The position numbers and the translations under genes were made by a program. Below, piece after piece: positions 7,950-24,214 of a stretch of 24,214 nucleotides of DNA. Origin of the DNA: Ignavibacteriota bacterium (GTDB taxonomy: Bacteria; Bacteroidota; Ignavibacteria; UBA10030; SZUA-254); contig JACPVN010000148.1 of assembly GCA_016191715.1 (NCBI GenBank), positions 1 through 24,214 of the forward strand. Direction: 5' to 3'. Every line of letters begins with the position of its first letter. Positions within the stretch are counted from its first letter, which is position 1. The notes beneath the pieces were generated by a model that was given only the letters and a program-made list of their open reading frames with translations, did not search any database and was not told the origin of the DNA.

Positions 7950-7957
7950 CTTACTTT

Positions 7958-7997
7958 CATCACTCCTCTCTTTCATTAGGGAAAGAGAGGAGTGATG
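7958..7997. terminator. Perfect 17-bp stem-loop just downstream of ppdK (terminator or mRNA-stabilising hairpin)
   Basis: CATCACTCCTCTCTTTC-ATTAGG-GAAAGAGAGGAGTGATG. There is no U-tract on the + strand, so intrinsic termination is uncertain. Confidence 0.5.
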
Positions 7998-8047
7998 GAG
8001 TGATGGTTTGACGAAGTAATTATGAATTTGAGAAAAAATACTCAAAC

Positions 8048-8089
8048 TCACTACTCACGAATCACAACTCACCGTTCACTACTTACAAA
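8048..8089. repeat. Degenerate heptamer tandem repeat (TCACNNN x5-6)
   Basis: TCACTAC TCACGAA TCACAAC TCACCGT TCACTAC TTACAAA in the ppdK-queA spacer. Confidence 0.65.
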
Positions 8090-8142
8090 ACACACTAATC
8101 GTGATTGAATTTATAAAAACACAATAGAAGGAAAAGAAAAAC

Positions 8143-9186
8143 ATGAGTATGAAATTATCAGATTTTAAATATCCCACGCCGCGCAACTTGATTGCAAAGT
8201 ATCCGGCAAAGCCGCGTGATTCTGCACGACTGATGGTTATCAATCGGGCAGATGAATCAATTGAAGAGAAGCGGTTCAGTGACATCGTTGATTACTTCAA
8301 GAAAGGGGACTCGCTCGTACTGAACAACACGAAAGTGTTCTCGGCGCGAATGGTCGGGAGAAAGGAAAAAACGAACGCGAAGATTGAAGTTTTTCTCCTT
8401 CGCCAGTTGAATGCGGAAGAAGGAATTTGGGATGTCATCGTTGACCCGGCACGCAAAGTCCGAATCGGTAACAAAATTTATTTCGATGATGGAAAGTTGT
8501 GGTGTGAAGTTGTAGATAATACGACTTCACGCGGTCGCACGGTTCGATTCAATCAAAAAGGAAATTTGTACGGATTGATTGACCGTATCGGATTGACGCC
8601 GCTTCCGTATTACATCAAGCGTGAGCCGGAAGACGCGGACAAAGAGGCGTATCAGACTGTGTTTGCGAAATATATCGGCTCGGTTGCTGCGCCTACTGCC
8701 GCTCTCCATTTTTCGCAACGACTACTGACACAACTTCATGACAAAGGTGTTTCGATTTCGCATGTTCTGCTTCATCTCGGTTTGGGTTCGTTCAGACCGG
8801 TGGAAGTCGAAGACCTTTCGAAACATCGTATGGACTCAGAATATTTTGAAGTTCCGCTCAGTGCCGCAGACGCTGTCAATAAGTCAATCAATAACAAGGG
8901 AAATGTTTTTCTTGTCGGAACGAGTGCGACACGTGCAGTCGAATCGGCAGTGACAACAACAGGTCATCTTAAAATGGCGCGCGGTTGGACGGACAAGTTT
9001 ATCTTTCCGCCGTACGAATTTAAGATTGCCGACAAGTTGATAACCAATTTCCATTTACCGGAATCAACCATGTTGATGATGGTCTGTGCATTCGCCAACC
9101 GCGATTTAATTTTGAAAGCGTACAAGAAAGCAATCAAAGAGAAATGGCGCTTCTACAGTTACGGCGATGCGATGTTGATTTTGTAA
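8143..9186 (+). CDS. queA: S-adenosylmethionine:tRNA ribosyltransferase-isomerase
   Basis: IAKYPAKPRDSARL, NNTKVF, YQTVFA, GSVAAPTA, TNFHLPEST, FYSYGDAM. Confidence 0.96.
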   Translation: MSMKLSDFKYPTPRNLIAKYPAKPRDSARLMVINRADESIEEKRFSDIVDYFKKGDSLVLNNTKVFSARMVGRKEKTNAKIEVFLLRQLNAEEGIWDVIVDPARKVRIGNKIYFDDGKLWCEVVDNTTSRGRTVRFNQKGNLYGLIDRIGLTPLPYYIKREPEDADKEAYQTVFAKYIGSVAAPTAALHFSQRLLTQLHDKGVSISHVLLHLGLGSFRPVEVEDLSKHRMDSEYFEVPLSAADAVNKSINNKGNVFLVGTSATRAVESAVTTTGHLKMARGWTDKFIFPPYEFKIADKLITNFHLPESTMLMMVCAFANRDLILKAYKKAIKEKWRFYSYGDAMLIL

Positions 9187-9192
9187 TCAACG

Positions 9193-9900
9193 ATGTTCAA
9201 AAATAAAAAAGTTGGAGTAATCATTCCCGCCGCAGGAACCGGAAGTCGGTTTGGCGGCGGGGTGGCAAAGCAATTTCTCGAACTGTACGGGAAGACCGTT
9301 CTTTCCGAAACTCTTCATCAGTTTCAGATTCATCCTTCGATTGATTGCATCGGAATTGCCGGTTCGACGGATGGAATTGAACAAATCAAAACACTTGTTC
9401 GGGTTGAAAATATTTCAAAAATTGTATGGATTGGAATTGGCGGAACAGAGCGGCAGGATTCTGTGTGGAACGGACTTCAGGCATTGCAACCTTTTTCACC
9501 TGAACTTGTTCTCATCCATGATGCGGTTCGTCCGTTTGTAAACGGTGAAATTATCGAACGTGTGTTAGAAGCAACAGTGAATCATGGAGCGGCTATTCCT
9601 GCTGTTCATCCGAAGGATACAGTGAAGATTAGCGATGCAAATTTGCTGGTTACCAAAACGCCGCTTCGGCAACAATGTTGGCAGATACAAACTCCACAGG
9701 GATTTGTGTTTAATGTTCTGATGAATGCTTTCGAGCAGGCGATTCGCGATAATTTTTTCGGAACGGATGATGCAAGTTTGGTTGAACGAATCGGCGCGCC
9801 CGTGAAAATAGTTGAAGGAAGTTATGAGAACTTCAAAATCACAACAAGAGAAGATTTAGTGTTCGCTGAACTTCTTGCAAAACAAAGAATGAGTTCATGA
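9193..9900 (+). CDS. ispD: 2-C-methyl-D-erythritol 4-phosphate cytidylyltransferase
   Basis: IIPAAGTGSRFG...KQFL, GGTERQDSV, VLIHDAVRPF, QTPQGF, TDDASL, NFKITTREDL. Confidence 0.93.
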   Translation: MFKNKKVGVIIPAAGTGSRFGGGVAKQFLELYGKTVLSETLHQFQIHPSIDCIGIAGSTDGIEQIKTLVRVENISKIVWIGIGGTERQDSVWNGLQALQPFSPELVLIHDAVRPFVNGEIIERVLEATVNHGAAIPAVHPKDTVKISDANLLVTKTPLRQQCWQIQTPQGFVFNVLMNAFEQAIRDNFFGTDDASLVERIGAPVKIVEGSYENFKITTREDLVFAELLAKQRMSS

Positions 9901-12900
9901 TTCATCAAAAAAGAAAAAATACATTTGTAACAATACTTCGCTTCGTACTACCTGTTGTTTGCTTCGTTCTTGTTTCACTTTGGACGATTCAAAAGAATGT
10001 TCCGATGAGCAGTCAGGCTTTTGTTCCATCACGGTTGAAGGCGACGTTCGCGTATCAAGCCGCAAAATGGTACAACGACCGCCGGGCGTTTCCGAGCGGA
10101 ATAATTCCTGTGGATTGGAAAGAGAAAGCGCTCAATCAAATCGAACAAAACAACCATACTTTTGCTAAGACTTCCGGTGTCACTCAGCTCTCCTGGCAAT
10201 CACTTGGACCGACGAATATTGCCGGTCGGCTTCGTTCGATTGTAGTTGATAAAGACCATCCGGAAACATTGTATGTCGGTTCGGTGAGCGGCGGGATATG
10301 GAAAACGACAAACGGAGGAAGTTCGTGGAGTTCCACTTCAGACTTTGCGGCAAACCTTTGCATCGGAACGATGGTGATGGACCCGACGAACCCGAATATT
10401 ATTTACGCGGGAACGGGAGAAGGATATTTTAATATTGATGCGTTGCGCGGTGCTGGTGTGTTGAAGTCAACAGATGGCGGTGCGAACTGGTCGTTGCAAA
10501 CAAATTTTGCAAATCCACATTCCCGATATTCGTACTACTACATCAATAAACTCGTCATTCGTCCTGATAATCCTAACGTTCTGTACGCGGCGATGATTGG
10601 TGGAATCTGGAAGACGACGAACGGCGGCTCGCTCTGGACAAAACTCAATGTGGGCAACTCGTCTGTGTTCTGTATGGATTTGGTCGCAAATCCTGATTTT
10701 CCCGACATTATGTACGCATCATTCGGTTTATTCATGCCGGGAAATGATGGAATTTATAAAACAACCGACGGCGGCGCGAACTGGACAAAACTGACAAACG
10801 GTTTTCCTTCACCAGTCTCAGGTTACACCCGCATTAGTCTGGCTATTGCACCGAGCGACCCTGATGTTTTGTATGCTTCGCTTGCGGATTCAAATTTTTA
10901 TACACACAGCATCCAGAAATCAACGAATGGCGGCAACAGTTGGTTTGCAGTTTCCTCGCCGTATGATAATTCGGTAACAGTGCGCGGAACTCATCTCGGT
11001 GGTCAGGGATTTTACAATAACACCATCGCTGTTCATCCGAACAATGAAAATATTGTATATGCCGGAGGAATAAATATTTTTCGTTCGAGTAATGGTGGTA
11101 CAGGTTGGACCCGGCTTCTTGATGCAAACGGAGTTTCAAACTTCCATGTTGACCAACACGCTATAGTATTTCATCCAAAGAACCCATCTACAATTTTCTT
11201 TGGAAATGATGGAGGCATCTATAAAACAACAAATGATGGCGTATCATTTAGTTCGCTTAATAACGGATTGCTGGTGACGCAGTTTTATAGTGGCGCGACA
11301 CATCCGACGGTAAATTATTTTTTCGGTGGAACGCAGGATAACGGAACATTGATGAGGTCAACTTCATCTGCCTGGCAACCAATACTCCCAGGCGATGGCG
11401 GTCCGGTGATTGTCAATTATCGAGACCCCGATACTGTTTATATGTCGTATGTCTATCTTTCGATTTATAGATCGGTGTTTGGCGGTACAGGTCCGCAACG
11501 AATGATGCTTGGAATTCCTATTGAAACCGGAACTACCTGGACATCTGACCGATGTTCGTTCATCGCACCGTTAGTAATGGACCCGAACAATCCGAATGTG
11601 TTGTATGGTGGAACATATAGGTTATTCAAAACAGCCAGCGCGGCTGAATCATGGTCGGCAATCACGGATGATTTAACGGGAAGTGGTGCGGGCGGCGTTC
11701 AAACATCTGGCGCAACTATCACAGCAATTGCTATTGCAAAATCTGATTCTAAAATTATATATGTAGGCACAAGCGGTTGGTCAGGCGTTCGCTCACGTGT
11801 AATGATATCAACGAACGGTGGAGGTAATTGGGCTCAACACGATCAAATTCCTTTGCCGAACCGCGAAGTCAGTTCAATCGCTATTGACCCGCTTAATGCA
11901 AACAGGGCGTACGTTGGATATTCAGGGTATGGAACAGGCACAGCAACAACCGGTCATGTCTATATGACAACAAATCGTGGAAGCAACTGGTCGAACATCA
12001 GCGGAAACTTGCCTGATATTCCAGTCAACTCAATGGTTATTGACCCGAAGCAGTTGACGCACGTAATCATCGGGACTGACCTTGGTGTGTTTGAAACCAC
12101 GAACGGAGGAACAACTTGGTCTCAGGAGAACGATGGACTTGCAAACGTCGCTGTTCATGATTTGGACATTCGGGAAGACGGATTTATTCTTGCTGCTACA
12201 CATGGCCGCGGGATGTTTCTTTCTAAAACGGATTTGTATTCGGGGCTTGCATTGTACTTTCCATCCCAAACTGCTTCCAACATTTCGACGAATCCAACAT
12301 TACGCTGGAAACATTCAGACTCTGCAACCGTGTATCGTTTGCAAGTTGCGACCGACCCGACGTTTGCTACCGGAATTGTTTACAGTGATTCAAACTTGAC
12401 TGATACTGTACAGGCGATTTCGGGTTTATCATTGAATTCGACATACTTTTGGCAGGTCAGCATTAAAAAATTGTCAGGAAAAACTTCTTCGTCACCGATT
12501 TGGAGTTTCACAACAATCGGAACGTATCCGCCATCGTTCTTTGCAAGTGTTTCGATTGATTTTCCGAATTATTCTTCTCAAGGAGGTTACTCGACAACGG
12601 ACTACCGGCTTGTAGGACTTCCCGGTTTAAGCAATTTGAGGATTGATAGTTTGTTCTCCGGAACTCATAAAACCGACTGGCAAGTCTATTGGGATAACGG
12701 CGCCGCTTCAGATTATTTGATTGAGTATAACGGAAGTTCAGATTTTCGTTTCTCTTCCGGACGCGCGTTTTGGATGCTGAACAAAGGAGATTGGAATTTT
12801 TCAGGAACACTCAATTCAATGCCAATGAATAATGATGCAGTGGAAATACCGTTACACTCCGGTTGGAATATGATTACGGGTCCATATCCGTTTGCCGTTA

Positions 12901-13814
12901 CTTGGGCAACTATCAAATCGGCAAACAGCGTTACTGAATCATTATGGGGATTTAAGGGAAGTTTCATTTCTTCAACTTCCCTAGAGCCATATAACGGTTA
13001 TTATTTTTTCAATTCTACAAACTTGACTTCTCTGAAAGTTCCTTATGGGAGTTCGCTTGGAAAGTTAGTTGATGAAGAAAGCGAATCGGTGAACGATTGG
13101 CAAGTGAGCATCGGACTTCAAACAAAAACGTATTCTGAGAATGTGGTTTCGTTCGGAGTTGTTACATCATCATCAATCGGATTGGATAAATTCGATGTTC
13201 GCCGACCGCGAACAGTCGGAGAAACTCCTTCGGTTATTTTCTCCCGAACAGAATGGGATGATTTGTACAGCACGTTTGCAACCGACTTCAAACCGGAAAT
13301 ACAGGATTCTCAAAGTTGGAAATTTGAAGTTTTGAATACAAGGAGAAAATCCGTTTCGCTCTCCTTTGATGGAGTGAAAACTATTCCTCGGCAGTTCGAT
13401 GTATTTCTCATTGATGAAACACGCGGCATGAAGCAAAATCTCAGAAGCAATTCCACGTATACTTTTTCATCAACAAGCGATAGACATGAGTTCGTTGTTG
13501 TGGTAGGAAAGAAAGAAACGCTTGCCGGATATCTGAATACTGTTGCACCGAAAGAGTTTTACCTGAGTGATAACTTTCCCAATCCGTTTAACCCGACGAC
13601 GAATTTCGAATTTCGAATAGCCCATTTCGAATTTGTCTCATTGAAGATATATAACCTTGCGGGGCAAGAAGTGGCTTCATTAGTGGAAGAATCAAAAGAA
13701 AGCGGAACGTACATAGTCGAGTGGAACGCAGCGAATCTGCCGTCGGGGGTTTATCTTGCACAGTTCAGGGCGGGAACGTTTTCTTCCTTCAAGAAAATTT
13801 TACTGCTGAAGTAA
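9897..13814 (+). CDS. Secreted Asp-box/BNR (VPS10/sortilin-like) beta-propeller protein with FN3-like domain and T9SS type-A C-terminal domain
   Basis: N-terminal hydrophobic segment; about ten (K/R)(S/T)T(D/N)GGxxW repeats; YRLQVATDPTF...YFWQV FN3-like segment; C-terminal DNFPNPFNPTT...SGVYLAQF...KKILLLK. ATGA overlap with the ispD stop. Confidence 0.8.
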   Translation: MIHQKRKNTFVTILRFVLPVVCFVLVSLWTIQKNVPMSSQAFVPSRLKATFAYQAAKWYNDRRAFPSGIIPVDWKEKALNQIEQNNHTFAKTSGVTQLSWQSLGPTNIAGRLRSIVVDKDHPETLYVGSVSGGIWKTTNGGSSWSSTSDFAANLCIGTMVMDPTNPNIIYAGTGEGYFNIDALRGAGVLKSTDGGANWSLQTNFANPHSRYSYYYINKLVIRPDNPNVLYAAMIGGIWKTTNGGSLWTKLNVGNSSVFCMDLVANPDFPDIMYASFGLFMPGNDGIYKTTDGGANWTKLTNGFPSPVSGYTRISLAIAPSDPDVLYASLADSNFYTHSIQKSTNGGNSWFAVSSPYDNSVTVRGTHLGGQGFYNNTIAVHPNNENIVYAGGINIFRSSNGGTGWTRLLDANGVSNFHVDQHAIVFHPKNPSTIFFGNDGGIYKTTNDGVSFSSLNNGLLVTQFYSGATHPTVNYFFGGTQDNGTLMRSTSSAWQPILPGDGGPVIVNYRDPDTVYMSYVYLSIYRSVFGGTGPQRMMLGIPIETGTTWTSDRCSFIAPLVMDPNNPNVLYGGTYRLFKTASAAESWSAITDDLTGSGAGGVQTSGATITAIAIAKSDSKIIYVGTSGWSGVRSRVMISTNGGGNWAQHDQIPLPNREVSSIAIDPLNANRAYVGYSGYGTGTATTGHVYMTTNRGSNWSNISGNLPDIPVNSMVIDPKQLTHVIIGTDLGVFETTNGGTTWSQENDGLANVAVHDLDIREDGFILAATHGRGMFLSKTDLYSGLALYFPSQTASNISTNPTLRWKHSDSATVYRLQVATDPTFATGIVYSDSNLTDTVQAISGLSLNSTYFWQVSIKKLSGKTSSSPIWSFTTIGTYPPSFFASVSIDFPNYSSQGGYSTTDYRLVGLPGLSNLRIDSLFSGTHKTDWQVYWDNGAASDYLIEYNGSSDFRFSSGRAFWMLNKGDWNFSGTLNSMPMNNDAVEIPLHSGWNMITGPYPFAVTWATIKSANSVTESLWGFKGSFISSTSLEPYNGYYFFNSTNLTSLKVPYGSSLGKLVDEESESVNDWQVSIGLQTKTYSENVVSFGVVTSSSIGLDKFDVRRPRTVGETPSVIFSRTEWDDLYSTFATDFKPEIQDSQSWKFEVLNTRRKSVSLSFDGVKTIPRQFDVFLIDETRGMKQNLRSNSTYTFSSTSDRHEFVVVVGKKETLAGYLNTVAPKEFYLSDNFPNPFNPTTNFEFRIAHFEFVSLKIYNLAGQEVASLVEESKESGTYIVEWNAANLPSGVYLAQFRAGTFSSFKKILLLK

Positions 13815-13827
13815 GAGGAGTTTATCC

Positions 13828-14337
13828 ATGAGAGTATTTTTGAAATCAACATCGTTCAGACTGTTTCTTATCGTTTGTTTCTTCAATTTGATGTTGTCAA
13901 CTGAATCAAGTGCGGAGAACAATCATGCAAGCGTCAGCAACATTCGATTCGAGCAACTTGATGAACGTGTCATCATTACTTATGATTTATCAGGCAATTC
14001 GAGTAATCGTTATGATGTATCCATATTGCTGAAAAAGAAGAGTGACCCGTCATTCGGGTTTGAACCGAAACTTCTGACAGGAAACATTGGTGGTGGCATT
14101 GCATGCGGAGAAAATCTTGCAGTCGTGTGGAGTAATGATGAAGAAATTCCCGATGATTTGAGAAACGGTGATTATTATTTCGTCGGTTACGCTTCAGAGG
14201 TAGAAGAATCTTCAATCAGTCCCTGGATATGGATAGGAGCCGTATTAATTGTGGGTGGAATTGTCTATTTGATTGTTAGCAAATCAAAAGAGGAAACACC
14301 AAACGAATTTCCAACTCCGCCTGGGCGACCGAACTGA
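13828..14337 (+). CDS. Hypothetical exported protein with beta-sandwich-like domain, C-terminal TM helix and Pro-rich tail
   Basis: Signal-like N-terminus ending SSA; SNIRFEQ...IITYDL...LTGNIG...VVW core; TM PWIWIGAVLIVGGIVYLIV; tail FPTPPGRPN; GAGGAG ribosome site upstream. Confidence 0.7.
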   Translation: MRVFLKSTSFRLFLIVCFFNLMLSTESSAENNHASVSNIRFEQLDERVIITYDLSGNSSNRYDVSILLKKKSDPSFGFEPKLLTGNIGGGIACGENLAVVWSNDEEIPDDLRNGDYYFVGYASEVEESSISPWIWIGAVLIVGGIVYLIVSKSKEETPNEFPTPPGRPN

Positions 14338-14378
14338 GGCGTGGTCAATAAATTTTCTTTAATATTTCAATAAAACAC

Positions 14379-14409
14379 TTGATTTTATCAAAAACCTTTC
14401 GTAAGTTTG
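14379..14409 (+). promoter_or_regulatory. Putative housekeeping promoter for the downstream secreted-protein array
   Basis: TTG (14379-81), 20 nt, then TAAGTTTG (14402-09), matching the Bacteroidota TTTG-N19-21-TAnnTTTG consensus. It also reads TTGATT-N17-TAAGTT. AT-rich spacer, 52 nt before ATG 14462. Confidence 0.55.
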
Positions 14410-14461
14410 AACCATAGTTAATAATCTAATTTACTTCCTAATACCATCTCTGGGAAAAACC

Positions 14462-15616
14462 ATGAAAAAGTATTTACCATTTATTTCTGTTTGTCTTTTG
14501 CTCTTTGCATTTGCTTTGATGTTTGAACAGACCGCAACTGCACAGGCGCCGATGAAATTCAGAACATTTCGTGCATCAGATTATCGTTCTCAATCAACTC
14601 CCAAAAGTCGTTCAGGATATATTTTACGAGGACGACTACCCAATGCGGGAAACGTTCGTGACACTGTTTTCTTGAATCGCGGTTTCAGTTGGGAAGCGCC
14701 GGAAGATGGCGGTTTCTTACGCGTAGGACATCGTCATACTGATAGTTCGCGCTGGTACGGTTGGTTTTTCTATTTCCGATGGCATTACAGTGCGCCGGAA
14801 GTACGATATTACATTTTCAGTCCTTCAGCATTAGCGAAGAGTCCGGACTATTTAAAAGTTCGGGGTGAGGTAAGAACGACGACCTATTTCGGAAATGCAG
14901 GCAACGCGCTTACTCAGAACCTCACTGCAATGAAAACCAATATCGCCGCAAGCGATTTGGGAATTACTCCAACAGGGTTTGGTGACCTTGTCTTCAATCA
15001 GGCGAACGGACCGGAAACGATTTTTAATGGAAAGACAATTCGGGAAATTGTAATGTTAGGAGATTCGGCAGTAACATTGGGAAAATTACAAAAAACAAAG
15101 TACCCTTCATCGTTACTTTCACTTGTCAATACTGTGATGGCTCGAATTAACACCGAGTTTTATTCTTCTGTTGTTGAGACCATTAAAACGAAACCGTTAA
15201 TGATACAAGGCGCGAAGTTACTTTCAGCAGTCCCGTATTTGTATTATGACCCGACGCGTCTTATGCCATGGAACAGAAACAGAACACAGGTTCGCATCAG
15301 CAATCCGAACAGTTATATCCCGGCAATGCCGGAAAGTTATTCGTTGGAACAGAACTATCCCAATCCTTTCAACCCAAGTACCGTTCTTAGTTATCCGTTA
15401 TCTGTTACAAGTACTGTGACGTTAACTGTGTATGATGCCGTTGGTCGGGTAGTTGCAAGATTAGTGAACGATGTACAGGATGCCGGAGTTCAAACATCGG
15501 AATGGAATGCAGAAGGACTTGCAAGCGGCGTATATTTCTACAAACTTGAAGCGACAAGTCTCACGCAACCTGATGAATCTTTTGTTCAAATGAAAAAGAT
15601 GTTGCTCTTGCGGTAA
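14462..15616 (+). CDS. T9SS type-A sorting domain protein with uncharacterised N-terminal domain
   Basis: Signal peptide MKKYLPFISVCLLLFAFALMFEQTATA; C-terminal EQNYPNPFNPST...ASGVYFYKL...KKMLLLR. Confidence 0.8.
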   Translation: MKKYLPFISVCLLLFAFALMFEQTATAQAPMKFRTFRASDYRSQSTPKSRSGYILRGRLPNAGNVRDTVFLNRGFSWEAPEDGGFLRVGHRHTDSSRWYGWFFYFRWHYSAPEVRYYIFSPSALAKSPDYLKVRGEVRTTTYFGNAGNALTQNLTAMKTNIAASDLGITPTGFGDLVFNQANGPETIFNGKTIREIVMLGDSAVTLGKLQKTKYPSSLLSLVNTVMARINTEFYSSVVETIKTKPLMIQGAKLLSAVPYLYYDPTRLMPWNRNRTQVRISNPNSYIPAMPESYSLEQNYPNPFNPSTVLSYPLSVTSTVTLTVYDAVGRVVARLVNDVQDAGVQTSEWNAEGLASGVYFYKLEATSLTQPDESFVQMKKMLLLR

Positions 15617-15657
15617 GGACATTTATACAATGGAATGTTAGAGTATTGGAAATATCT

Positions 15658-15816
15658 ATGTAAGAGAAGGCGATGATTCTTCACAAGATTATTAAAAACC
15701 CGTTCATGTGTTTTAAGAGATTAGAACACGGAGCGGGTTTTTGTGCTTTTACAACTAAGCAATGGCTCATTCTTTTTGTTATGCATATTTTATTATGCAA
15801 TTATTCTCAAGCGCAA
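15658..15816 (+). repeat. Conserved leader module copy 1 (SD-like site, ATG, hairpin-encoding N-extension, signal peptide)
   Basis: Clearly homologous to 19946-20125. Contains hairpin 15694-15742 with GAGA loop followed by GTGCTTTT. Confidence 0.85.
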
Positions 15817-17565
15817 GATACTACCCATATTGTCGTTTCTCAAGGATGGAATTTAATTTCCCTACCGATAGAGCCTGCGCAATCAAGCGTGACAGAACTT
15901 TTTCCTAACGCTGTATCGAAAGCGTTTTATTATGATGGGCAGTATATTGCAATGGATACACTGAGACCGGAAATAGGCTATTGGCTGAAGTTTGCTCAGT
16001 CAGAAACAATCATGCTAACAGGCAAACAAATTTCCTGTCATGTGTTTACATTGCGTTCTGGATGGAACCTCATCGGGACGCCGGGCGAACAAGTCGGCGT
16101 GAATGATCTTAAAACTTCTCCAGAGGGAATTCTTGCTACAGGTTTCTACGGATACGATTCTATTGGCTACACAATTGTAGATGATAGTCTTCTGCCTGGA
16201 CATGGATATTGGGTAAAGTCGAGGCAGAGAGGAACAATGCTCATTCCATTTTCTAAATACACACCACCCATCTTAATTTCACCGGCCGATAGCTCAGATT
16301 ACCAAAGTACCTATCCTCTCTTTACGTGGAGTGAAATCCAGTGTAAGAATTTCTACTATCTGCAAGTTTCGCAAGACTCGACATTTACATCTGCCATTTA
16401 TGATGATTCTCTGTTGGATTAATCAAAAAAGCGTGTGTGTTTGTCGTACGGTACATCATATTACTGGCGTGTGGCGGCACGATATGAAGGCGGACTTCGT
16501 GGTGGTTGGTCAAACATCAGGCAACTTACGACCGCAGAACCTTCTGATAGTTTGAGATGGGAGTTTCTTGGATTTCCTCATCAAGGTCGTGATTACACAA
16601 ACCAACTTAGTATCGCTGTCCACCCTGAAAATGATTCAATAATTTATGTTGGAATAGGAAGTAATTTCTCAGCAGGACACCAGGGCAAAATATACAAGAC
16701 AACGAATTTAGGAGCAACATGGGATACGCTTGTTGAGGGAGTAACAGCAACAACCATCGTTATTCATCCACAGAATCCTGACATCGTCTATGTTGGATTA
16801 AGTGCCGCTAATTACACCCCTCCCGGCATCATCAAAACATCCGATGGTGGTACTTCTTGGTCCTGGTCAGATTATGGCATCTATATTGATTGGGAAACAT
16901 TTCCCGTCGAGATCGAAATTGACCTGCTCCATCCTGATACAATGTTCGCAGGCACGTCGTCGTTTTATGCCTCACAAGGTAGGATATACAAGACAACAGA
17001 TGCCGGCAGACGCTGGTTTAGACCAACAGTGAGTGATTCATTAACCGGAAATATATCAGTCATAGCAATTCATCCCGAAACTACATCAATTGTTTTTGTA
17101 GCGAGAGGCGTGATAGGACATCTTTTCCGATCTTCGGATGGTGGGTTTAACTGGAAACAAAATTCATTATCATTTGATACGGCTTCTATTTATGATGTAG
17201 AGTTTGATCCTGTGAATCCAAATGTTTTGTATGCTATCATTACTCCTTATGATTATCCTGTAAAAATTTACAAAACTACGGATGGTGGAATGAATTGGTT
17301 CAATTCAAGTAATGGACTTCCTCAATTACGAACGCATGGGTTTTATGATATTCTTATTAGGCAATGTACCTGTGAAATATTCCTTATTTCAGGTCAAGGA
17401 CTATACCATAGTTCAAATCAAGGAGATTTATGGCGTCCAATTTCACTCCCAAGTAGTAATTGGCTCGAAGGTGCTGCGTTATCAAAAGATGGAACATATT
17501 TATATGTAGCAATATCTAACTCTGGTATTTATCGTACAAGACTTATAACAAATGTATTAGATTAA
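15673..17565 (+). pseudogene. Secreted GWN/GYW-domain + FN3-like + Asp-box beta-propeller protein interrupted by an in-frame TAA (16420-16422)
   Basis: ORFs 15673-16422 and 16435-17565 share one frame. The sequence reads YLQVSQDSTF...DDSLLD*SKKRVCLSYGTSYYWRV straight through an FN3-like domain (cf. YRLQISTTINF...TKYYWRV at ~19090-19210). Six Asp-box repeats follow; there is no CTD. Confidence 0.75.
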
Positions 17566-17607
17566 ATCACAATGTACCAATAACAATCAATAAAAGGATT
17601 ATTTATT

Positions 17608-19903
17608 ATGTCCAATATATTTTTTCTTTGCGGTCGTACCTTCACAATCATGATTATGTTCTATATCTATAGTGTTACCTGTTTTTCTCAAGATGAAATC
17701 ATGCAAGGATATTATCAAGGAGAACAAATAGAATACATAGGAAATCAGATTTGTGTAAAAATACGACCAAACGTAGATGTACAAACCGTGAGTGCTTTGT
17801 TCAGCAACTACGATGGTGAACTCATAAGTAATTTCAACAGCCTCCGCTGGGGTGTTATTCAATTGCCACAAGGTAGCGATATTTTTCCGCTCATTGACAG
17901 TTTGAAACAAAATTTACTCATTGAAGAAGCTGAACCAAATGGGGTTGGTCGTGAGCATTATGACCCTAATGACTATTACTATGGTCTGGGTTATCAGTGG
18001 AGTTTGTACAATTATGGCCAACAACCAACAGGCGGAACACCGGGTGCCGACATAAAAGTACGGCAAGCATGGGATATTACTCGAGGAAGTTCAAATATCC
18101 TTATTGCTGTTCTTGATAGCGGAATACCATACGAACATTAACACATCAATTAGTACATCCAGACTTATCAAATAATGCAAGATTTATTTTGGGTCCGGAT
18201 TTTACAGATCCAATATACAACTCTGATCGCTCGGTGAGGGATAATTCCGGTCACGGCACACATGTTACTGGTATAATAGCCGCTGAAACAAATAACAATA
18301 TCGGCATAGCAGGTATTGCAGGTGGATGTAAAATACTGGTTATTCAGGTCTTTGGATCTGGTGGGATACCTCAAAGTATTTTTGCAAACGGTGTTATTGC
18401 GGCGGCAGATAGCGGTGCAAGAATAATTAATTTTAGTGGTGGCATTGGAGGCAATTACCAGCAAGCCCGCGATGCCGTTCAGTATGCAAATTCAAGAGGA
18501 ACCCTGCTCGTCGTATCAACAGGAAACGATGGGTATGTTGAATATCCTGCACGTTACTCACTTGAATACTCCAATGTCATTGCCGTCGGTTCTACTACGA
18601 AGGATGATGCGGTGGTATGGAATTCAGGGAAAGGGACTGCTGTTTCGGTAACAGCTCCAGGCGGTGATACGAACCCATTTTGCCCCGAAATAGACCCTCC
18701 CGGTGGTTGTATAACTGTTCCCGATGCAGTGAGAATTTATTCCACATTTCCTCCATATCTTGGACAATCTTTTAAGTGGGCGTCAGGAACCTCAATGGCT
18801 GCACCGCATGTATCTGGAATTGCCGCCTTAATTCTCTCGGCACAACCGTGTTTGTCAGTATCTGATGTTCGGTCAATTATAGAATCGACAGCAGATATAA
18901 AGGCTCGCCTGGATGGGACATATATTATGGCCATGGTCGTGTGAATGCAAACAAAGCTATGATGCGCGCATTAATGGACTTTCGACCGTGTCCGCCAAGT
19001 CTTGCTTCTCCTACAAATTGTGAAGTCGTTTCAAATCCGCCAACGCTTACATGGAATTCCGCGCTTTTGTCATCTGGACCAATCAATTATCGCTTACAAA
19101 TTTCAACAACCATTAATTTTACAAGTACGGTATTGGATGTTTCTGGTATCGACACTGGGTCCTATGCTACTTCCGGGTTAGCCAACACAACCAAGTATTA
19201 CTGGCGGGTGATGGCAACTAATGCAGTAGGTTCGAGTTCTTGGTCTGAGTCAAGGTCTTTTTATACCGCACCGCTAGCAGTACCGACTCTCTCCGGGACT
19301 TCGGTGAGAATCGGTAACGATCTTTTTCCTAGACTTTCATGGTCATGGAATAGTGTCGGCTGTGGCGACATGTACACTCTTTATCGTTACATATGCGAGT
19401 CGCCTGCAGATTGCGAAAGTGAACCCCTATTAGGTCCAACAATTGTGTATGCTGGAACCGCTACATCATTCACAGATGGTTTAGCTTTGGGTACACAGCC
19501 CACCTATGCGTTCTACTACGTCACTGCATCGGCTAATGGCGGTCAAAGTACTTCTAATCCATCCAACAAAGTTTCTTATCAACTAAAGTATGCCTCGAAG
19601 TATGGCTCTGACTTGGCAAACCCTCCCGGCACTATTCCAAAAGAAACCAAGATTGATGATTGTTATCCCAACCCATTCAACCCGTTAACTGTTATTCGTT
19701 ATCAGTTATCGGAAGATTTGCATGTGAAGATAACTGTGTTCAATACACTCGGAGTTGAAGTTGCAACTCTCGTTGATGGAGTTATGTCGGCGGGATACAA
19801 GTCGGTCGAGTTCGATGCTACATCATTACCAAGCGGCGTTTATTTTTACAAACTCACCGCCGGCTCTCATTCAGACGTGAAGAAGATGGTGTTGGCTCGA
19901 TAA
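17608..19903 (+). pseudogene. S8 subtilisin-like protease with prodomain, FN3-like domains and T9SS CTD, split by two single-base deletions
   Basis: The catalytic motifs are spread over the pieces: IAVLDSGIP (ORF1), GHGTHVTG, STGN and GTSMAAPHV (ORF2), FN3-like and YPNPFNP CTD (ORF3). Adding 1 nt near 18128 and 1 nt near 18897 gives DSGIPIRTLTHQLVHPDL and ESTADDKGSPGWDIYYGHGRVNA and a 766-codon frame. Confidence 0.8.
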
Positions 19904-19945
19904 GGAAACTTTTAGTAAACAGAAATCGAGAAAATTATTTCAACG

Positions 19946-20125
19946 ATGTAAGAGAAGACAATGATTCTTCACAAGAGTATGAATCCGCCAAAGGCGGACA
20001 AGAACCCGTTTATGTGTTTTAAGAGATTAAAACACGGAACGGGTTTTTGTGCTTTTACAATCTCGAAGCATTGGTTCTTTATTGTTGTTACGTATATTTT
20101 ACTATGCAATTATTCACATGCGCAA
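19946..20125 (+). repeat. Conserved leader module copy 2, with an 18-nt palindromic in-frame insert
   Basis: Homologous to 15658-15816; hairpin 20000-20048; extra AATCCGCCAAAGGCGGAC at 19982-19999. Confidence 0.85.
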
Positions 20126-22720
20126 TGGTCGTGGCAAAATCCAAAACCCACAGGCAATTCCCTTTACCATGTATATTTCATGAATCAAAATCGTGGATGG
20201 ATTCTTGGAGAAAATGGAACATTATTAAAAACAACGGATGCAGGTACAACTTGGATTGATGAACATATTGCACCGGACTATACATTTAAACGAATCTTAA
20301 GTGTTGATGCGGCTAACCTATGGTTGTTAGGATATAAACAAGGTACCGGATATTCTACGATTTATTATTCATCTGATTGTGGAACAACATGGATAGAACG
20401 TTTACAAACTTATACGCTTCCGGATAGCCTTCGCGCATTTTCTGATATCTATTTTAATGATCATCTTCAAGGTTGGTCGGTTGGAGCGGATGGAAAAATA
20501 ATAACTACTGATGACGGTGCCTTGACATGGCAACTGCAAGGTAAGATATATAATTACTCGTTGGAAAAAATACAGTTCTTCAATGATAACATAGGAGTGA
20601 TTAACGGCGGCTTATGGACAACGCAACTTTACCCAGAGCCAAGTGACGAAAGCGTTTCGAGGGGAATTATCCTACGGACGACGGATGCAGGTGCACAATG
20701 GGATACTATCTATCACGACACTATTAACATAGAAAGTGTTTATTTTAGAAATTCTCAACTAGGATGGGCAGTCGGAACATCCTTCTGGATAGATTCCTTT
20801 GACTATGGGCAGGCAAGAAATTTTATTATGAAAACAACAGATGGTGGAATAACATGGGTTATTCAAAGCAGTATTTGGTTACACAGTATTTACTTCATTG
20901 ATGATTACAAAGGATTAGCATGTGGAGACGGAGGTGTTGTTGCAACAACTACTAATGGAGGTGAAAATTGGGCATATAGCATCCCTGGCAGTAGATATTT
21001 AAATGATATAATTTTTAGAGATTCATTAAATGGATATATTATCGGTTCGGAAGGAATCATCCTCCAGTCAAGTAATGGAGGACAATCATGGTTTCAGTAT
21101 GATTCAAAATTTATTAGCGGTATCACGAACGATGTACATTTCATCAACTCGGATACAGGGTGGTTTGTCAATTCCGATATTTACCGAACGACAGATGGAG
21201 GGGGTACGTGGAGCCCTTCCGGTTTATCTGGCGTAAAAAAAATAGATTGTACTGATAGAAATAACTGCTGGGCTTGTGGTAATGGAGGGAAGATTGTATA
21301 TACAAGCGATGCAGGAGCGAGTTGGATACAGCAAACAAGTGGAACAACATCTAATTTGAGAGACATAGAGTTTGCTACACCCCAAATAGGTTGGACTGGC
21401 GAAGGTGGAACGATTATTCTGAAAACGACAACTGGCGGAACTACATGGTTTCCACAAACCACGGCAAACATTGGCGGCTTAGATAAAATAATAATTCAAA
21501 ATAGCCAAAGGGCTTGGCTTTATGGAACGTACGCCAGCGCGGTAACAACAAGTGGCGGTTATCCCTGGAGTCTTCATTCGGGAATATTACCGGTGTTTTG
21601 GCTAAACCCGGATACAGGGTGGGCAAAGGGGCAAGAACTGTACAGAACATTCGATGGTGGACAATCTTGGGATGTTGTAGGTGGGGGGTATGTTTATGTT
21701 TTTTTTGTAAATGCGAATACAGGTTGGACAAGAAGTGTTACAAGCATTTCGAAAACTACAGACGGTGGTTTTACCTGGCAACCAGATTTACAGACTGGCT
21801 CGGTGGCTTGGCTTACAGATATGCATTTTACAGATACTAATCATGGGTGGGCTGTCGGGTTAAATGGTACTCTTATTCATTATGGGTACAATATGCCAAT
21901 GCCTTCCGATAATGATACTGTCGCAATCAGTATAAATCCTGATTGGAATATGATTTCCCTCCCTCTCCGAATGAATAGCACACTTAAAGATTCTGTTTAT
22001 CCGTCATCGGAATCATTTGCATATTTTTATAACAAGGGTTATGCTATAGAAGAAACATTGAAGCTGGGAAGCGGTTACTGGCTGAAATTCCAATCTCAAC
22101 AATTACCGGAACTGAAAGGTGAACCGCTTCATTGTCTCTCTTTCGATGTTCAAAAAGGATGGAATATGATTGGCTCAATTTCCAATCCGGTTCCAGTTTC
22201 ATCTATTACAAGCATGCCTGCGGGTATAAGTGTCTCCCCCTTTTATGAATACAATGGAACAGAAGGGTACCGAATGACTGATACCATCAAACCGGGATAC
22301 GGCTATTGGGTCAAAGTTAGCCAAGATTGTAGATTCACATTTGCAGATTCAACAATTTTTGTTCCTAACGGAAATATCCTCATTGACAGGACAATTGCTG
22401 AATTACCGCCCTCTCCGCCTGAAAGTGAAACCTCAAATCTCAGATCTCAAATCCCAAATCAATTTAGTCTTGGACAAAATTACCCCAATCCTTTTAATCC
22501 ATCAACTGTTATCCGTTATCAGTTACCCGTTAATAGTTATGTAACTCTGATGATATATGATATTCTTGGTAGAGAAATCGTAACCCTCGTTGATGGCATG
22601 CAAGATGCAGGATACAAGTCTGTGAATTTCGAAGCAACAAACTATGCAAGCGGAATCTATCTTTATAAGATTGTTACTGATAAGTATATTGACGTGAAAA
22701 AGTGTCTTTACGTACGATAG
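19961..22720 (+). CDS. Secreted YCF48/Hcf136-like Asp-box beta-propeller protein with GWN/GYW domain and T9SS type-A CTD
   Basis: About 13 TTDxGxTW repeats with F.(D/N)...GW.VG..G.I spacing; WNMISLP..GYWLKF..GWNMIG..GYWVK domain; GQNYPNPFNPST...ASGIYLY CTD. Confidence 0.85.
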   Translation: MILHKSMNPPKADKNPFMCFKRLKHGTGFCAFTISKHWFFIVVTYILLCNYSHAQWSWQNPKPTGNSLYHVYFMNQNRGWILGENGTLLKTTDAGTTWIDEHIAPDYTFKRILSVDAANLWLLGYKQGTGYSTIYYSSDCGTTWIERLQTYTLPDSLRAFSDIYFNDHLQGWSVGADGKIITTDDGALTWQLQGKIYNYSLEKIQFFNDNIGVINGGLWTTQLYPEPSDESVSRGIILRTTDAGAQWDTIYHDTINIESVYFRNSQLGWAVGTSFWIDSFDYGQARNFIMKTTDGGITWVIQSSIWLHSIYFIDDYKGLACGDGGVVATTTNGGENWAYSIPGSRYLNDIIFRDSLNGYIIGSEGIILQSSNGGQSWFQYDSKFISGITNDVHFINSDTGWFVNSDIYRTTDGGGTWSPSGLSGVKKIDCTDRNNCWACGNGGKIVYTSDAGASWIQQTSGTTSNLRDIEFATPQIGWTGEGGTIILKTTTGGTTWFPQTTANIGGLDKIIIQNSQRAWLYGTYASAVTTSGGYPWSLHSGILPVFWLNPDTGWAKGQELYRTFDGGQSWDVVGGGYVYVFFVNANTGWTRSVTSISKTTDGGFTWQPDLQTGSVAWLTDMHFTDTNHGWAVGLNGTLIHYGYNMPMPSDNDTVAISINPDWNMISLPLRMNSTLKDSVYPSSESFAYFYNKGYAIEETLKLGSGYWLKFQSQQLPELKGEPLHCLSFDVQKGWNMIGSISNPVPVSSITSMPAGISVSPFYEYNGTEGYRMTDTIKPGYGYWVKVSQDCRFTFADSTIFVPNGNILIDRTIAELPPSPPESETSNLRSQIPNQFSLGQNYPNPFNPSTVIRYQLPVNSYVTLMIYDILGREIVTLVDGMQDAGYKSVNFEATNYASGIYLYKIVTDKYIDVKKCLYVR

Positions 22721-22795: not shown

Positions 22796-24214
22796 ATGAA
22801 AAATATGTTAGCATTTACTTTTATCATCCTGATGCTATGTTCTTCTATGTTATATGCACAACAATCTGTTGTTTCCGAGGAACTGAGAAGTGCAATGGTA
22901 AACGCTTCAGAAGCAGAAATGATCGAGGTGCTTATATTTTTTAAAGACACAAAAACTTTCACTCCTCAAGAAAAATCAATTGCTGTAACAGAATCCTTGT
23001 CATCGTGGCTAACTTACCACGCCCGCGCATTAAAAGAATTCGGAAACAGTAAAAGTGCTAATGCGAGAGCAATCGTCTCGTCAGCAGAAAGAAATGGGAA
23101 AGCGAAGCTTGTCAACGATTTGTGGGTAGCAAATGCGATCAGCTGCCGTGCAACCAAAGATATCATTGCATTACTTGCACATTTACCTGATGTAAAGAAA
23201 ATAAAACTGGATAAAATTTTAAAAGTTGGATCATCAAGTTCATATTCAAACAATGCAGTTAGTGAGAAAGGTAAAAAGTTTTTAGGAAATTCAGTCTCAG
23301 TTCCAGAATGGGGTGTTGACTCGATTAAGGCACCTTTGGTGTGGAATATGGGTTACAACGGACAAAACGTGCTTATAGCTGTACTTGATGATGGATTCAA
23401 TTATAATCATCCCGATCTCAAAGACCATATGTGGAATGGTAGTAACTTTACATATGATGGTCAACAATTACTTTATCATGGATGGGATGTTGTAAACAAA
23501 GCGTATGACCCACCTGATAATAATCCAATAGATGGTGGTGGTCATGGTACTCGAACTGCAGGTATCATTGTTGGAGATGGAACGCGTGGAAAACAAACAG
23601 GTGTTGCTCCTGGTGCAAAACTCCTCCTTATTCGAGTTTGGGAAAATATTGGAACATTACAAACACAAGAAAGTTGGTTTTTGGATGGGATTCAATGGTT
23701 TTTCAACATGAAACTTCAAAATCCAACATTCATTTATCCCGATATGATTAATATATCTGGTGGGATTGAATTTGGCGAGAAACCAGATTATGAAATATGG
23801 CGGGACCTATGTTACCAAGTATATAATGCAGGTGTGCTCATCGTTTCAGCAGCAGGGAATTTGGGAACATATGCAGCAACTTCCCTTGGATGTATAGACT
23901 CCGGCAATCAAGAAACGCTTTCATGTCCATTTAGTAGCATGATTGGAGCTCCTTGTGGAAGAGGTATTCCTTATAATATTGAAGTACCGGCTATAATCCC
24001 ATCACCATGGATTCACCCGAACCAACTTCCTCCATTACAGACTGGGGCTGATGATGCAGGTAAAAATTCGGTCCTCGCTGTTGGTGCCATTGGCCAATCG
24101 AATATTATTGAAAATTATTCAGCTCGCGGTCCGGCGAGATGGGGGGATATTCAAAGTCTCTATTCTTGTCAAGAACCTATTGCTTCAAAATATTGGGATT
24201 ATCCGTATTCTCCA
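22796..24214 (+). CDS. Secreted S8 subtilisin-like serine protease (3'-partial; missing from the ORF track because no stop lies in the window)
   Basis: GAAAGGA ribosome site; signal MKNMLAFTFIILMLCSSMLYAQQ; prodomain; EWGVDSIKAPLVW; Asp motif IAVLDDGFNYNHPDL; His motif GHGTRTAGII; oxyanion VSAAGN; YSARGP. Frame read codon by codon, open for 473 codons to the window end. Confidence 0.88.
   Translation, partial: MKNMLAFTFIILMLCSSMLYAQQSVVSEELRSAMVNASEAEMIEVLIFFKDTKTFTPQEKSIAVTESLSSWLTYHARALKEFGNSKSANARAIVSSAERNGKAKLVNDLWVANAISCRATKDIIALLAHLPDVKKIKLDKILKVGSSSSYSNNAVSEKGKKFLGNSVSVPEWGVDSIKAPLVWNMGYNGQNVLIAVLDDGFNYNHPDLKDHMWNGSNFTYDGQQLLYHGWDVVNKAYDPPDNNPIDGGGHGTRTAGIIVGDGTRGKQTGVAPGAKLLLIRVWENIGTLQTQESWFLDGIQWFFNMKLQNPTFIYPDMINISGGIEFGEKPDYEIWRDLCYQVYNAGVLIVSAAGNLGTYAATSLGCIDSGNQETLSCPFSSMIGAPCGRGIPYNIEVPAIIPSPWIHPNQLPPLQTGADDAGKNSVLAVGAIGQSNIIENYSARGPARWGDIQSLYSCQEPIASKYWDYPYSP

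Follow-up and report, generated by a model that had tools for sequence, protein, structure and literature searches.

The two secreted beta-propeller genes of the window, by which we mean the whole 24,214-nt stretch of Ignavibacteriota DNA analysed here, open with a duplicated leader in which a hairpin resembling the ordinary intrinsic terminators found in this genome lies inside the reading frame. We consider this leader best read as a pyrBI-type transcription attenuator that responds to ribosomes and that, in this genus, has had its leader ORF fused to the signal peptide, a reading to which we give a probability of roughly 45%. Synteny and partial sequence similarity indicate that it is probably homologous to a leader found in related genera, and that the window probably carries a derived, gene-fused form of this previously undescribed element. 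The features concerned are the following.

14462 to 15616, plus strand: upstream gene A, encoding a T9SS cargo protein of 384 aa with a Por_Secre_tail match.
15659 to 15816, plus strand: leader copy 1, delimited by alignment, with ATGTAA start-stop, Shine-Dalgarno-like purine run, start codon, hairpin, U-tract and signal-peptide h/c region.
15659 to 15664, plus strand: ATG-TAA start-stop mini-ORF, conserved in 3/3 G000/G002 copies.
15673 to 15675, plus strand: start codon of propeller gene 1 (MILHK...), preceded by GAGAAGG (AGGAG in G002), the sole in-frame start common to all copies.
15673 to 17565, plus strand: propeller gene 1, with leader, 'GWNLISLP' domain and BNR/sortilin-like propeller, and an in-frame TAA at 16420-16422.
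15694 to 15742, plus strand: hairpin 1, 22 bp, with a bulged A at 15706 and a GAGA loop at 15717-15720, spanning codons 8-24.
15738 to 15750, plus strand: U-tract 1, TTTTTGTGCTTTT, directly 3' of the GC-rich stem base.
17608 to 19903, plus strand: S8 protease 1, broken into three ORFs, with fn3 and a T9SS C-terminal domain; leader copy 2 follows it.
19947 to 20125, plus strand: leader copy 2, delimited by alignment, the copy-1 module plus an 18-nt in-frame insertion and a 3-nt insertion.
19961 to 19963, plus strand: start codon of propeller gene 2, conserved.
19961 to 22720, plus strand: propeller gene 2, intact, 919 aa, with YCF48/BNR-like propeller, 'GWNMISLP' domain and T9SS C-terminal domain.
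19984 to 19998, plus strand: small GC hairpin TCCGCC-AAA-GGCGGA, inside the 18-nt insertion of copy 2.
20000 to 20048, plus strand: hairpin 2, 22 bp, with one bulged A and a GAGA loop.
20044 to 20056, plus strand: U-tract 2, TTTTTGTGCTTTT, from the terminator scan.
22796 to 24214, plus strand: S8 protease 2, running past the window end.

Alignment of 15658-15816 with 19946-20125 gave 78% identity over 180 columns, the 18-nt and 3-nt in-frame indels included, and by segment 31/34 positions were identical for the Shine-Dalgarno-like run and start, 57/63 for hairpin and U-tract, and 42/51 for the h-region. The mature parts of the two propellers share 30-47% protein identity, with a different domain order, which upholds the claim of the initial annotation that the genes share leader DNA ahead of reordered mature domains. 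Homology between the copies starts just 14 nt before the ATG, and outside the leaders the gene units resemble each other at the nucleotide level only in 46 nt of the T9SS C-terminal domain. All indels among the leader copies of G000 and its sister species G002 are multiples of three. The start-stop ATGTAA (15659-15664 and 19947-19952) lies 30-48 nt upstream of the stem, and the conserved start 20-38 nt upstream of it. Signal-peptide cleavage is predicted between A47 and Q48 in copy 1 and between A54 and Q55 in copy 2; a Sec signal peptide is implied by the T9SS C-terminal domain of P0002.

Both hairpins fold far better than expected, with minimum free energies of -30 kcal/mol (z = -7.4) for hairpin 1 and -32 kcal/mol (z = -6.7) for hairpin 2, values that none of 200 shuffles attained. 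The folds thus agree with the earlier description of a stem of about 22 bp with bulged A, GAGA loop and U-tract. At the GC-rich stem base the sequence passes at once into U5 GUG C U4 (GTGCTTTT 3' of the stem, with the tail UUUUUGUGCUUUU), and this U-tract is kept in G002, in G001 (same genus) and in every copy of the family leader described below. Three G-U pairs in hairpin 1 make the structure specific to the plus strand, as they become A-C mismatches on the other. The four stem positions that differ between copies 1 and 2 all still pair (A-U to G-U, C-G to U-G, U-G to U-A), and the leader peptide varies (E/K, A/T, M/T, R/K, L/V) while pairing is kept. The swaps thus preserve pairing as the initial annotation had noticed, but they do not amount to covariation: all are one-sided wobble-type changes, which keep pairing in about half of random transitions, and no two-sided compensatory change was found either in the genus-type stem or in the family-type stem. 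The genus-type copies number only 3-4, including that of G002, which is probably a recombinant of copies 1 and 2 and hence no independent sample.

In-frame ATG, GTG or TTG codons occur at codons 1, 12 and 37 in copy 1, at codons 1, 7 and 18 in copy 2, and at codons 1 and 38 only in the G002 copy. In copy 2 all of them are upstream of or inside the hairpin, and translation would accordingly have to begin there, as had been proposed. The bulged A at 15706 is the A of the internal ATG, and in the third copy this codon is ACG; therefore, the upstream ATG at 15673/19961 is the conserved start. It is unpaired in the folds. Sequestration of a start codon within the stem, one of the two modes of action suggested by the initial annotation, was rejected on these grounds, as was a GTG start in the U-tract, which is out of frame in the window. 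The ATG frame is free of stops in 4/4 genus copies, the other frames carrying 1-6 stops, and the stretch from the hairpin to the h-region holds no in-frame start. With the conserved ATG upstream and no such start after it, the terminator appears to lie within a translated leader ORF.

We then compared the hairpins with the other terminators of the genome. There are 67 comparable sites with hairpin and T-tract at most 120 nt after a same-strand stop, with a median of 14 pairs and a maximum of 24, and strong sites (-22 kcal/mol or lower) are intergenic in 45/49 cases. The core CCCG...CGGG stems of the two leaders scored -21 and -18.5 kcal/mol in the genome-wide scan. Like the usual Rho-independent terminators in this genome and its family, the leader has an A-rich 5' flank, a GC-rich stem base and a T-tract (often TTTTTGTG). 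The hairpins are the first terminator-like structures after the upstream genes, gene A and S8 protease 1, at 83 and 102 nt past their stops, a distance within the usual range; terminator scans detected no other such hairpin between the gene A stop and hairpin 1. In contrast to ordinary terminators, the leader hairpin is placed inside codons 8-24 of an ORF with no alternative start, moves with the downstream leader, and with 22 bp is among the longer ones. All the sequence features of a Rho-independent terminator are present within what appears to be a translated N-terminal extension, consistent with the earlier notion of a terminator-like element inside an extended signal peptide. A sigma-70 scan yielded no more sites than shuffles, and for the family box described below TTGAGA-N18-TATTAT is a promoter guess made by eye, on which we base no claim.

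Beyond the copies of G000 and G002, searches recovered no genus-type leader. BLAST recovered only the two known copies from the source genome, which is 81% complete, and at the DNA level only G002 among 101 relatives; a peptide profile run against 277 genomes of the order matched G000 and G002 alone. Words from residues 1-60 had no match among 5.8 billion clustered proteins, a profile gave a single chance match (P0003, a translated repeat array) among 1.84 billion cluster representatives, and two exact-pattern scans of JGI metagenomes gave none. The sole Rfam 15 match in the window, SpF19, reached 26 bits where the gathering score is 60, and the G024, G001 and G028 loci had no Rfam match, in line with the initial annotation, which did not recognise the element as a described one. 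Neither P0001 nor P0002 matched an N-terminal or signal-peptide family in a Pfam scan (E <= 0.01). A reading as an integron attC-like element or a mobile repeat was rejected, there being two copies only and no core-site match by eye. The model built from three genus copies also matches unrelated hairpin-plus-U-tract sites in relatives, whose form, AAAAACCCG..CGGGTTTTTGTGTTT, is that of ordinary terminators.

Gene A has orthologues in G002 (84%) and in G001 (61%). G002 retains the hairpin intact before a decayed, frameshifted gene remnant of 92 aa, an arrangement equally compatible with a plain gene A terminator, and its collinearity with G000 ends exactly at 15816. In G001, a terminator of its own follows gene A; next come a start context, GAGGACGATGAC, as in the window, and then a different hairpin, AAACCCGCAAGCG..CGCTCTGCGGGTTTTTTGC. 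A hairpin is thus retained beside the propeller gene of G001 despite sequence turnover.

A multi-copy leader, with 17 copies in all, was found in four further genera of this family; G024, G028, G004 and G010 are among the genomes that carry it. Its layout comprises a conserved 5' box with an ATG, a hairpin AACCCACTTGCATTCC..GGAATGAGGTGGG, and then GGGTTTTTGTGTTT, GGGUUUUUGUGUUU or TTTTTGTGTTT. The ATG, preceded by AGAGG, was called invariant, yet one copy has lost it; the U-tract GGGTTTTTG is the least variable part of the whole family. The element stands in constant orientation and at a short distance from a signal-peptide gene, 25-90 nt upstream of T9SS cargo or lipoprotein beta-propeller genes, and the genes 3' of it are Por_Secre_tail propellers; G024 has a tandem array of leader, propeller and S8 protease, as in the window. 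In 12/14 copies the frame of the ATG crosses the hairpin without a stop, against 0/14 and 5/14 for the other frames; the ORF of two copies stops inside the hairpin. This leader ORF is separate and 34-49 codons long, with a stop near or overlapping the main start. A separate peptide ending before the structural gene is present, for example, in G024a, G024b, G004_C67a and G024_C149; it is absent in the window, where the ORF continues into the signal peptide. In-frame leader-gene fusions recur among family copies.

The family model, R2, scored 27.4, 23.1 and 19.4 bits on G002, copy 1 and copy 2 (E 0.002-0.08); these were the top three matches in 31.5 kb but are below a genome-wide threshold, and generic terminator likeness may contribute to them. 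In this alignment the family ATG falls on the start-stop ATG of the G002 copy. Window and family leaders have in common the stem base, the U-tract, the small hairpin and the orthologous gene context, and differ in the upper stem and in the reading frame across the hairpin. The small hairpin at 19984-19998 is about 87% identical (20/23) to an optional apical hairpin of the family leader (AATCCGCCAGAAGCGGAAAGAAC in G024_C149). Helices proposed for the 5' box were 77% paired, with no significant covariation, and did no better than shuffles. With 17 copies and no Rfam match, R2 constitutes a new candidate RNA family.

These data suggest how the leader may work. The hairpin would be a genuine Rho-independent terminator, attenuating transcription where the propeller(-protease) unit begins and crossed by a translated frame: a polymerase past the stem and U-tract would terminate unless a ribosome from the upstream AUG already covered the 5' arm, for which it would have to travel about 3-8 codons on copy 1 and about 10 on copy 2. 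The extent of read-through into the secreted-protein gene would thus mirror the rate of translation initiation. Most relatives would keep a separate leader ORF, with a stop at or overlapping the main start; in the genus of the window this stop and the main start would have been lost, turning the leader ORF into an N-terminal extension of the signal peptide. The same hairpin would double as the first terminator after the upstream gene. Once the relatives are included, the translation-coupled attenuator, the other mode of action first suggested, becomes the most coherent reading. The leader, which has at most two His codons, showed no pause signal, no regulatory codon run and no antiterminator pairing, and when the leaders were folded without the 3' arm, the 5' arm had no partner that was conserved. 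A U-rich pause tract was not seen, and the hairpin at 19984-19998, missing from copy 1, could be a pause hairpin in copy 2.

In E. coli pyrBI, the terminator is located inside the leader ORF, and its hairpin is blocked when a ribosome closely follows the polymerase (PMC4824070). The leaders resemble pyrBI in having a putative intrinsic terminator inside what appears to be a translated leader ORF, which is a separate ORF in G024, G028, G004 and G010. They differ in that the window ORF is fused in frame to the signal peptide of the structural gene, that the window shows neither a U-rich pause region nor nucleotide-sensing logic, that the genes regulated would be secreted propellers rather than biosynthetic enzymes, and that there is no sequence relationship. 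The E. coli ampC attenuator, reportedly described by Jaurin et al. in 1981 as a device of growth-rate control, is said to have, ahead of the terminator hairpin of its leader, a ribosome-binding site and an AUG-UAA start-stop. A comparable ATGTAA stands upstream of the stem in the window copies, which differ in having after it a second, apparently productive AUG, whose ORF crosses the hairpin. Attenuators of the trp/his type also place a short translated leader before the terminator, but the leader here has no regulatory codon run and no supported antiterminator, and its ORF crosses the terminator instead of ending before it. At the protein level, the extended signal peptide region (ESPR) of autotransporters likewise puts an extra 25-35 residues before the normal n-h-c region of a Sec signal peptide; unlike the ESPR, the extension here has no Pfam N-terminal match and is conserved as nucleic-acid pairing while the peptide varies.

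The hairpin could also be a plain terminator combined with start-codon drift, which would end the upstream transcript while the ORF, having lost its own start, begins at an upstream ATG and is expressed by residual, unregulated read-through. The distance of the hairpins from the upstream stops, with no terminator in between, fits this explanation, as do the normal start that G001 and G024 keep after the hairpin, the intact hairpin before the G002 remnant and the degraded appearance of window unit 1 itself. It sits badly with G001, where a second hairpin adjoins the propeller gene although gene A has its own terminator, and with the family copies, one of which is 3' of a divergent gene while others lie 200-500 nt from unrelated housekeeping genes. 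The hairpin moreover moves with the downstream leader and not with the upstream gene, as the onset of homology just before the ATG indicates, and the ATG and open frame through the hairpin are conserved across genera. We regard this explanation as unlikely. A post-transcriptional role, in which the stem would act as a brake on elongation or initiation, a stabiliser, an RNase III-type site or, in the family leader, a structure hiding the Shine-Dalgarno sequence, appears more doubtful still. About 22 bp is the length that RNase III needs, the stem exceeds the median of the genome's terminators, and the 3' arm in G028_C19 and G004_C67b has GAGGTG 7 nt before the U-tract GTG, in frame with a perfect lipoprotein signal peptide. 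However, in the window that GTG is out of frame and the real start is unpaired, and the U-tract, which termination alone needs, is the least variable part of the family.

Two further explanations concern the origin of the leader. The family leader might be an independent small gene, yielding either a small RNA of about 110-150 nt that ends at the terminator or a peptide of 35-50 aa (MTEERV...THLHSEQ...WVFVF), with the window copies as fused relics. Its conserved 5' box, its ATG with the preceding AGAGG, its end at a terminator and its several copies per genome are what such a gene would present, but substitutions in the box show no excess at third codon positions (alignment A6, read by eye), indicating that the peptide is not conserved as a peptide. 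The fixed orientation and short distance to a signal-peptide gene, the repeated in-frame fusions and the incomplete pairing of the proposed box helices also speak against it, and we think it very unlikely. Least probable is a DNA-level repeat, a palindrome at which recombination or a mobile element would exchange the mature domains while the leader stays constant. The 4.3 kb between the leaders of G000 are missing in G002, with breakpoints inside the leader, and one of the source-sample contigs over the locus, which are of low coverage, joins 20081 to 15776. Recombination between any 160-nt direct repeat would suffice for this without a dedicated site, though, and the genome has two copies only, the palindrome is imperfect on the other strand because of its G-U pairs, and no recombinase or transposase gene lies beside the leaders in the window.

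Returning to ribosome-sensitive attenuation, we tentatively propose that these leaders form a lineage-wide, undescribed cis-regulatory class of T9SS cargo and lipoprotein propellers, in which an ORF running through a terminator would license transcription by ribosome availability, and which one genus would have merged with the signal peptide. If so, the ribosome that unzips the terminator would also make the exported protein, the terminator being part of a protein-coding signal sequence, and a leader ORF would have been absorbed into a signal peptide. To our knowledge, ribosome-mediated attenuation has so far come mainly from enterobacterial biosynthetic and ampC leaders; it would here reach secretion cargo in an uncultured Bacteroidota-related (FCB) lineage. 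Intrinsic terminators in the first codons of real genes are usually taken for prediction noise, and annotators would gain a reason for the odd 50-residue signal peptides of these genomes. Terminator and U-tract are retained through restructured versions in several genera, always before or inside the start of secreted propeller genes. The sequencing runs that contain the locus are all groundwater DNA runs.

The two propeller genes open, as the initial annotation had proposed, with a common DNA module at 15659-15816 (copy 1) and 19947-20125 (copy 2), which displays 78% identity over 180 aligned columns, including in-frame indels of 18 and 3 nt. Identity reaches 31/34 in the ribosome-binding region and start and 57/63 in the hairpin and U-tract, and is lower, 42/51, in the hydrophobic core segment. 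Beyond the leader, the gene units resemble each other at nucleotide level in one place only, a 46-nt segment within the T9SS C-terminal domain, and the mature parts of the proteins share 30-47% identity at the protein level, with a different domain order. The signal peptides of the window copies (15811-15816, 20120-20125) and of relatives all end in A|Q or S|Q, Gln being the first mature residue, a pattern that fits the 'Q-rule' of signal peptidase I substrates in Bacteroidetes. Leader homology between the window copies ends exactly at this Gln codon. The source of the window is a groundwater metagenome bin of low coverage (3-5x depth) and 81% completeness. Propeller gene 1 is broken by one in-frame TAA at 16420-16422 (15673-16422 and 16435-17565 lie in the same frame), and S8 protease 1, located between the two propeller genes, is split into three ORFs (17608-18141, 18189-18944 and 18941-19903); at a coverage of 3-5x, these could be signs of a decaying gene unit or assembly errors. 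Each module encloses one hairpin:

15694-15742, + strand: hairpin 1, 22 pairs, one bulged A, GAGA loop
20000-20048, + strand: hairpin 2, 22 pairs, one bulged A, GAGA loop

Their folding energies are -30 and -32 kcal/mol (z about -7), and both are directly followed in 3' by UUUUUGUGCUUUU. On the opposite strand, three G-U pairs would become A-C mismatches, indicating that selection acts on the + strand RNA. The suggestion that the stem differences preserve pairing as covariation proved weak. Across copy 1, copy 2 and the single copy of the sister species G002, 16 stem pairs are invariant, five vary on one side only, through wobble changes, and the loop-closing pair is broken in G002; no two-sided pair change was found among these three copies. 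Moreover, the G002 copy is not an independent sample, its 5' half resembling copy 1 and its 3' half copy 2.

A start upstream of or within the hairpin had been predicted, and the upstream alternative held. Propeller gene 2 bears a T9SS C-terminal sorting domain and therefore needs a Sec signal peptide, and in every copy the segment separating the hairpin from the hydrophobic core lacks an in-frame ATG, GTG or TTG. The stem-internal ATG of the window copies is replaced by ACG in the G002 locus (L025), so that the only start common to all copies is the upstream ATG (15673, 19961), preceded by GAGAAGG in the window copies or AGGAG in G002. Because this common start is unpaired and lies upstream of the stem, by 20 nt in copy 1 and 38 nt in copy 2, start-codon sequestration is not supported. 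On this anatomy, translation would have to cross the hairpin in the window copies.

Set beside the hairpin-plus-T-tract sites of the whole source genome, the window hairpins look like ordinary terminators. A genome scan returned 523 such sites, and their intergenic share rises with site strength (45/49 at -22 kcal/mol or lower); the median distance past a same-strand stop is 66 nt. The 67 strong sites located within 120 nt after a stop have a median of 14 pairs and a maximum of 24. For the window hairpins, the distances from the stops of the upstream genes are 83 and 102 nt, with no other hairpin-plus-T-tract site detected in between by the genome scan. R1, a covariance model of the three genus-type copies, also matches unrelated hairpin-plus-U-tract sites in related genomes, of the form AAAAACCCG...CGGGTTTTTGTGTTT, which from their form alone appear to be ordinary terminators.

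In G001, a third species of the genus, the orthologue of gene A (the gene upstream of copy 1) has its own terminator, and the same start context, GAGGACGATGAC, is found ~110 nt beyond. This context leads to a different hairpin, AAACCCGCAAGCG..CGCTCTGCGGG, then UUUUUUGC, followed by a normal SD-GTGATG start and the signal peptide MKFLRVFLFLMLFFCGELHA|Q, with the frame from the upstream ATG still open and in phase. The canonical gene A terminator of G001 is AAAAATCCCGTGTATTT..AAATACGCGGGATTTTTTTTT (L084 2690-2745, G001:C542); nothing is found at its position in the source genome and G002, where the intergenic spacer is just 56 nt.

In G024, a relative from another genus of the family, the closest homologue of the second propeller gene (47% identity) is again followed by an S8 protease. 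The 540 nt of intergenic DNA ahead of this homologue recur 4.2 kb away, and the duplicated segment ends precisely at a hairpin with GGGTTTTTGTGTTT, 30 nt ahead of a normal start. BLAST and R2, a covariance model of this multi-copy leader, retrieved 17 copies of ~110-150 nt in four genera of the family, and none in 118 sampled genomes of the order's eight other families:

L124 3550-4216 and 7830-8408 (G024:C175): G024 leader loci
L127, L128, L136, L137, L142, L143, L146, L150, L151, L155, L156, L159: further leader loci

The relatives carrying it are metagenome-assembled genomes labelled Bacteroidota/Bacteroidetes or Chlorobiaceae. The consensus comprises a 5' box ACACAAAGAGGTGTCTTAAAATGACAGAGGAACGTGTAATGATAAA, a hairpin AACCCACTTGCATTCC...GGAATGAGGTGGGTT, whose tip optionally carries a small GC hairpin, and a tail TTTTTGTGTTT. 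Copies lie 25-90 nt upstream of signal-peptide genes; among the downstream products scanned, 7/10 bear a T9SS C-terminal domain and 4/10 are BNR/YCF48/SBBP-type propellers, one of them a lipoprotein. Upstream genes are unrelated and 200-500 nt away, one copy even following a divergent gene, and the hairpin of these relatives therefore belongs to the leader of the downstream gene rather than to the upstream gene. An Rfam scan gave no match for any family leader copy, and this leader is a candidate new cis-regulatory RNA family.

An ATG is invariant wherever the box is present, with AGAGG ~10 nt upstream. Its frame is stop-free to the end of the U-tract in 12/14 copies, compared with 0/14 and 5/14 for the other frames; it is kept by tip insertions of 33 and 18 nt and by a 24-nt box insertion, and broken by a 1-nt deletion (G010_C4) and a 53-nt insertion (G024_C196). 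In seven copies the leader ORF spans 34-49 codons and stops 17-53 nt past the first U, beside or overlapping the main start, while in four others (G028_C19, G004_C67b, G007_C486 and G010_C8) it reads on in phase into the signal peptide, the arrangement seen in the window's genus. Since the leader peptide is poorly conserved, it is probably the act of translation that matters.

The window element is probably homologous to the family leader. Their propeller gene contexts are orthologous, and both share the stem base (AACCC[A/G] ... [T/C]GGGTT) and the U-tract. Between the 18-nt 'insertion' of copy 2 with its flank, AATCCGCCAAAGGCGGACAAGAAC, and the optional tip hairpin of G024_C149, 20/23 positions agree, and the 5' arms of G001 and G024a match by eye at about 17/19. 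With R2 run without filters, G002, copy 1 and copy 2 were the top three matches in 31.5 kb (27, 23 and 19 bits). The three hairpin types show no sequence relationship in their upper stems, each of which is self-complementary, suggesting helix-level turnover under selection for a hairpin beside a U-tract. The window element would be the derived tip within a broader family of leaders that has not been described.

As for function, the element is best described as a putative terminator-type attenuator absorbed into the signal-peptide coding region; of the original reading, the terminator-like, translation-crossed element was retained, start sequestration was not supported, and the covariation proved weak. 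In such ribosome-mediated attenuation, the terminator would lie within the translated leader, and read-through would need a ribosome close behind the polymerase. In E. coli, terminators in the first 100 bp of an ORF work efficiently, the first ribosome having not yet caught up, and a nearby ribosome represses the terminator (PMC4824070); the pyrBI terminator lies inside its own leader ORF (PMC4824070). The window hairpins span +21 to +83 and +39 to +96 relative to the start codon and, given these E. coli data, should by default stop most transcripts, including those arriving from the upstream gene, with fast initiation at the upstream AUG predicted to increase read-through. Neither a pause signal nor regulatory codons nor an antiterminator turned up in the leader analysis. 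These functional statements draw on anatomy and on the comparison of copies that are few and related to one another.

The most serious rival, with perhaps a real but minor share of the probability, is a plain terminator overlapped by accident: the ordinary form of the hairpins and their distance from the upstream stops would fit, to be set beside the separate gene A terminator of G001 and the downstream-gene leaders of the relatives. A post-transcriptional role of the stem is rather unlikely. In L153 (G028:C19) and L156 (G004:C67), a GTG lies within the tail, 7 nt past the GAGGTG of the hairpin 3' arm, and opens the frame of a perfect signal peptide of the lipoprotein type (MFKAASIFVALLIIFIITGC and MFFTKSYFIVLLVILISIGC), so that the hairpin could hide the ribosome-binding site of these two genes; in the window the start is unpaired. 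That the family leader is an independent small gene is less likely still; its peptide is poorly conserved. A profile of the leader peptide of the window copies had one match in 1.84 billion representatives, P0003 (213 aa). With its four CFKPLQRGAGFL repeats, this 'protein' seems to be a DNA repeat array in translation and not a relative.

That the leader exists as a recombination site is very improbable. Exchange between leaders has probably left traces. Window positions 3370-15816 align collinearly with G002 (81% identity), and the alignment breaks off precisely where leader 1 ends; from there on, the G002 sequence resembles the mature start of propeller gene 2. The source genome has two leaders separated by 4.3 kb, G002 a single hybrid one, a difference explained by recombination between the leader repeats. 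Behind the G002 leader lies a 92-residue remnant (L025 1369-1647 (-), G002:C41), in which two frameshifts compensate each other and a stop comes early; the gene after it encodes a different propeller, and the hairpin is intact. One contig from the source sample (run X1, depth 3.2) joins window position 20081, in the 3' part of leader 2, back to 15776 in leader 1, with variant letters at 15808-15828. It may stem from recombination, from a tandem or circular arrangement between the two leader repeats, or from a chimeric assembly.
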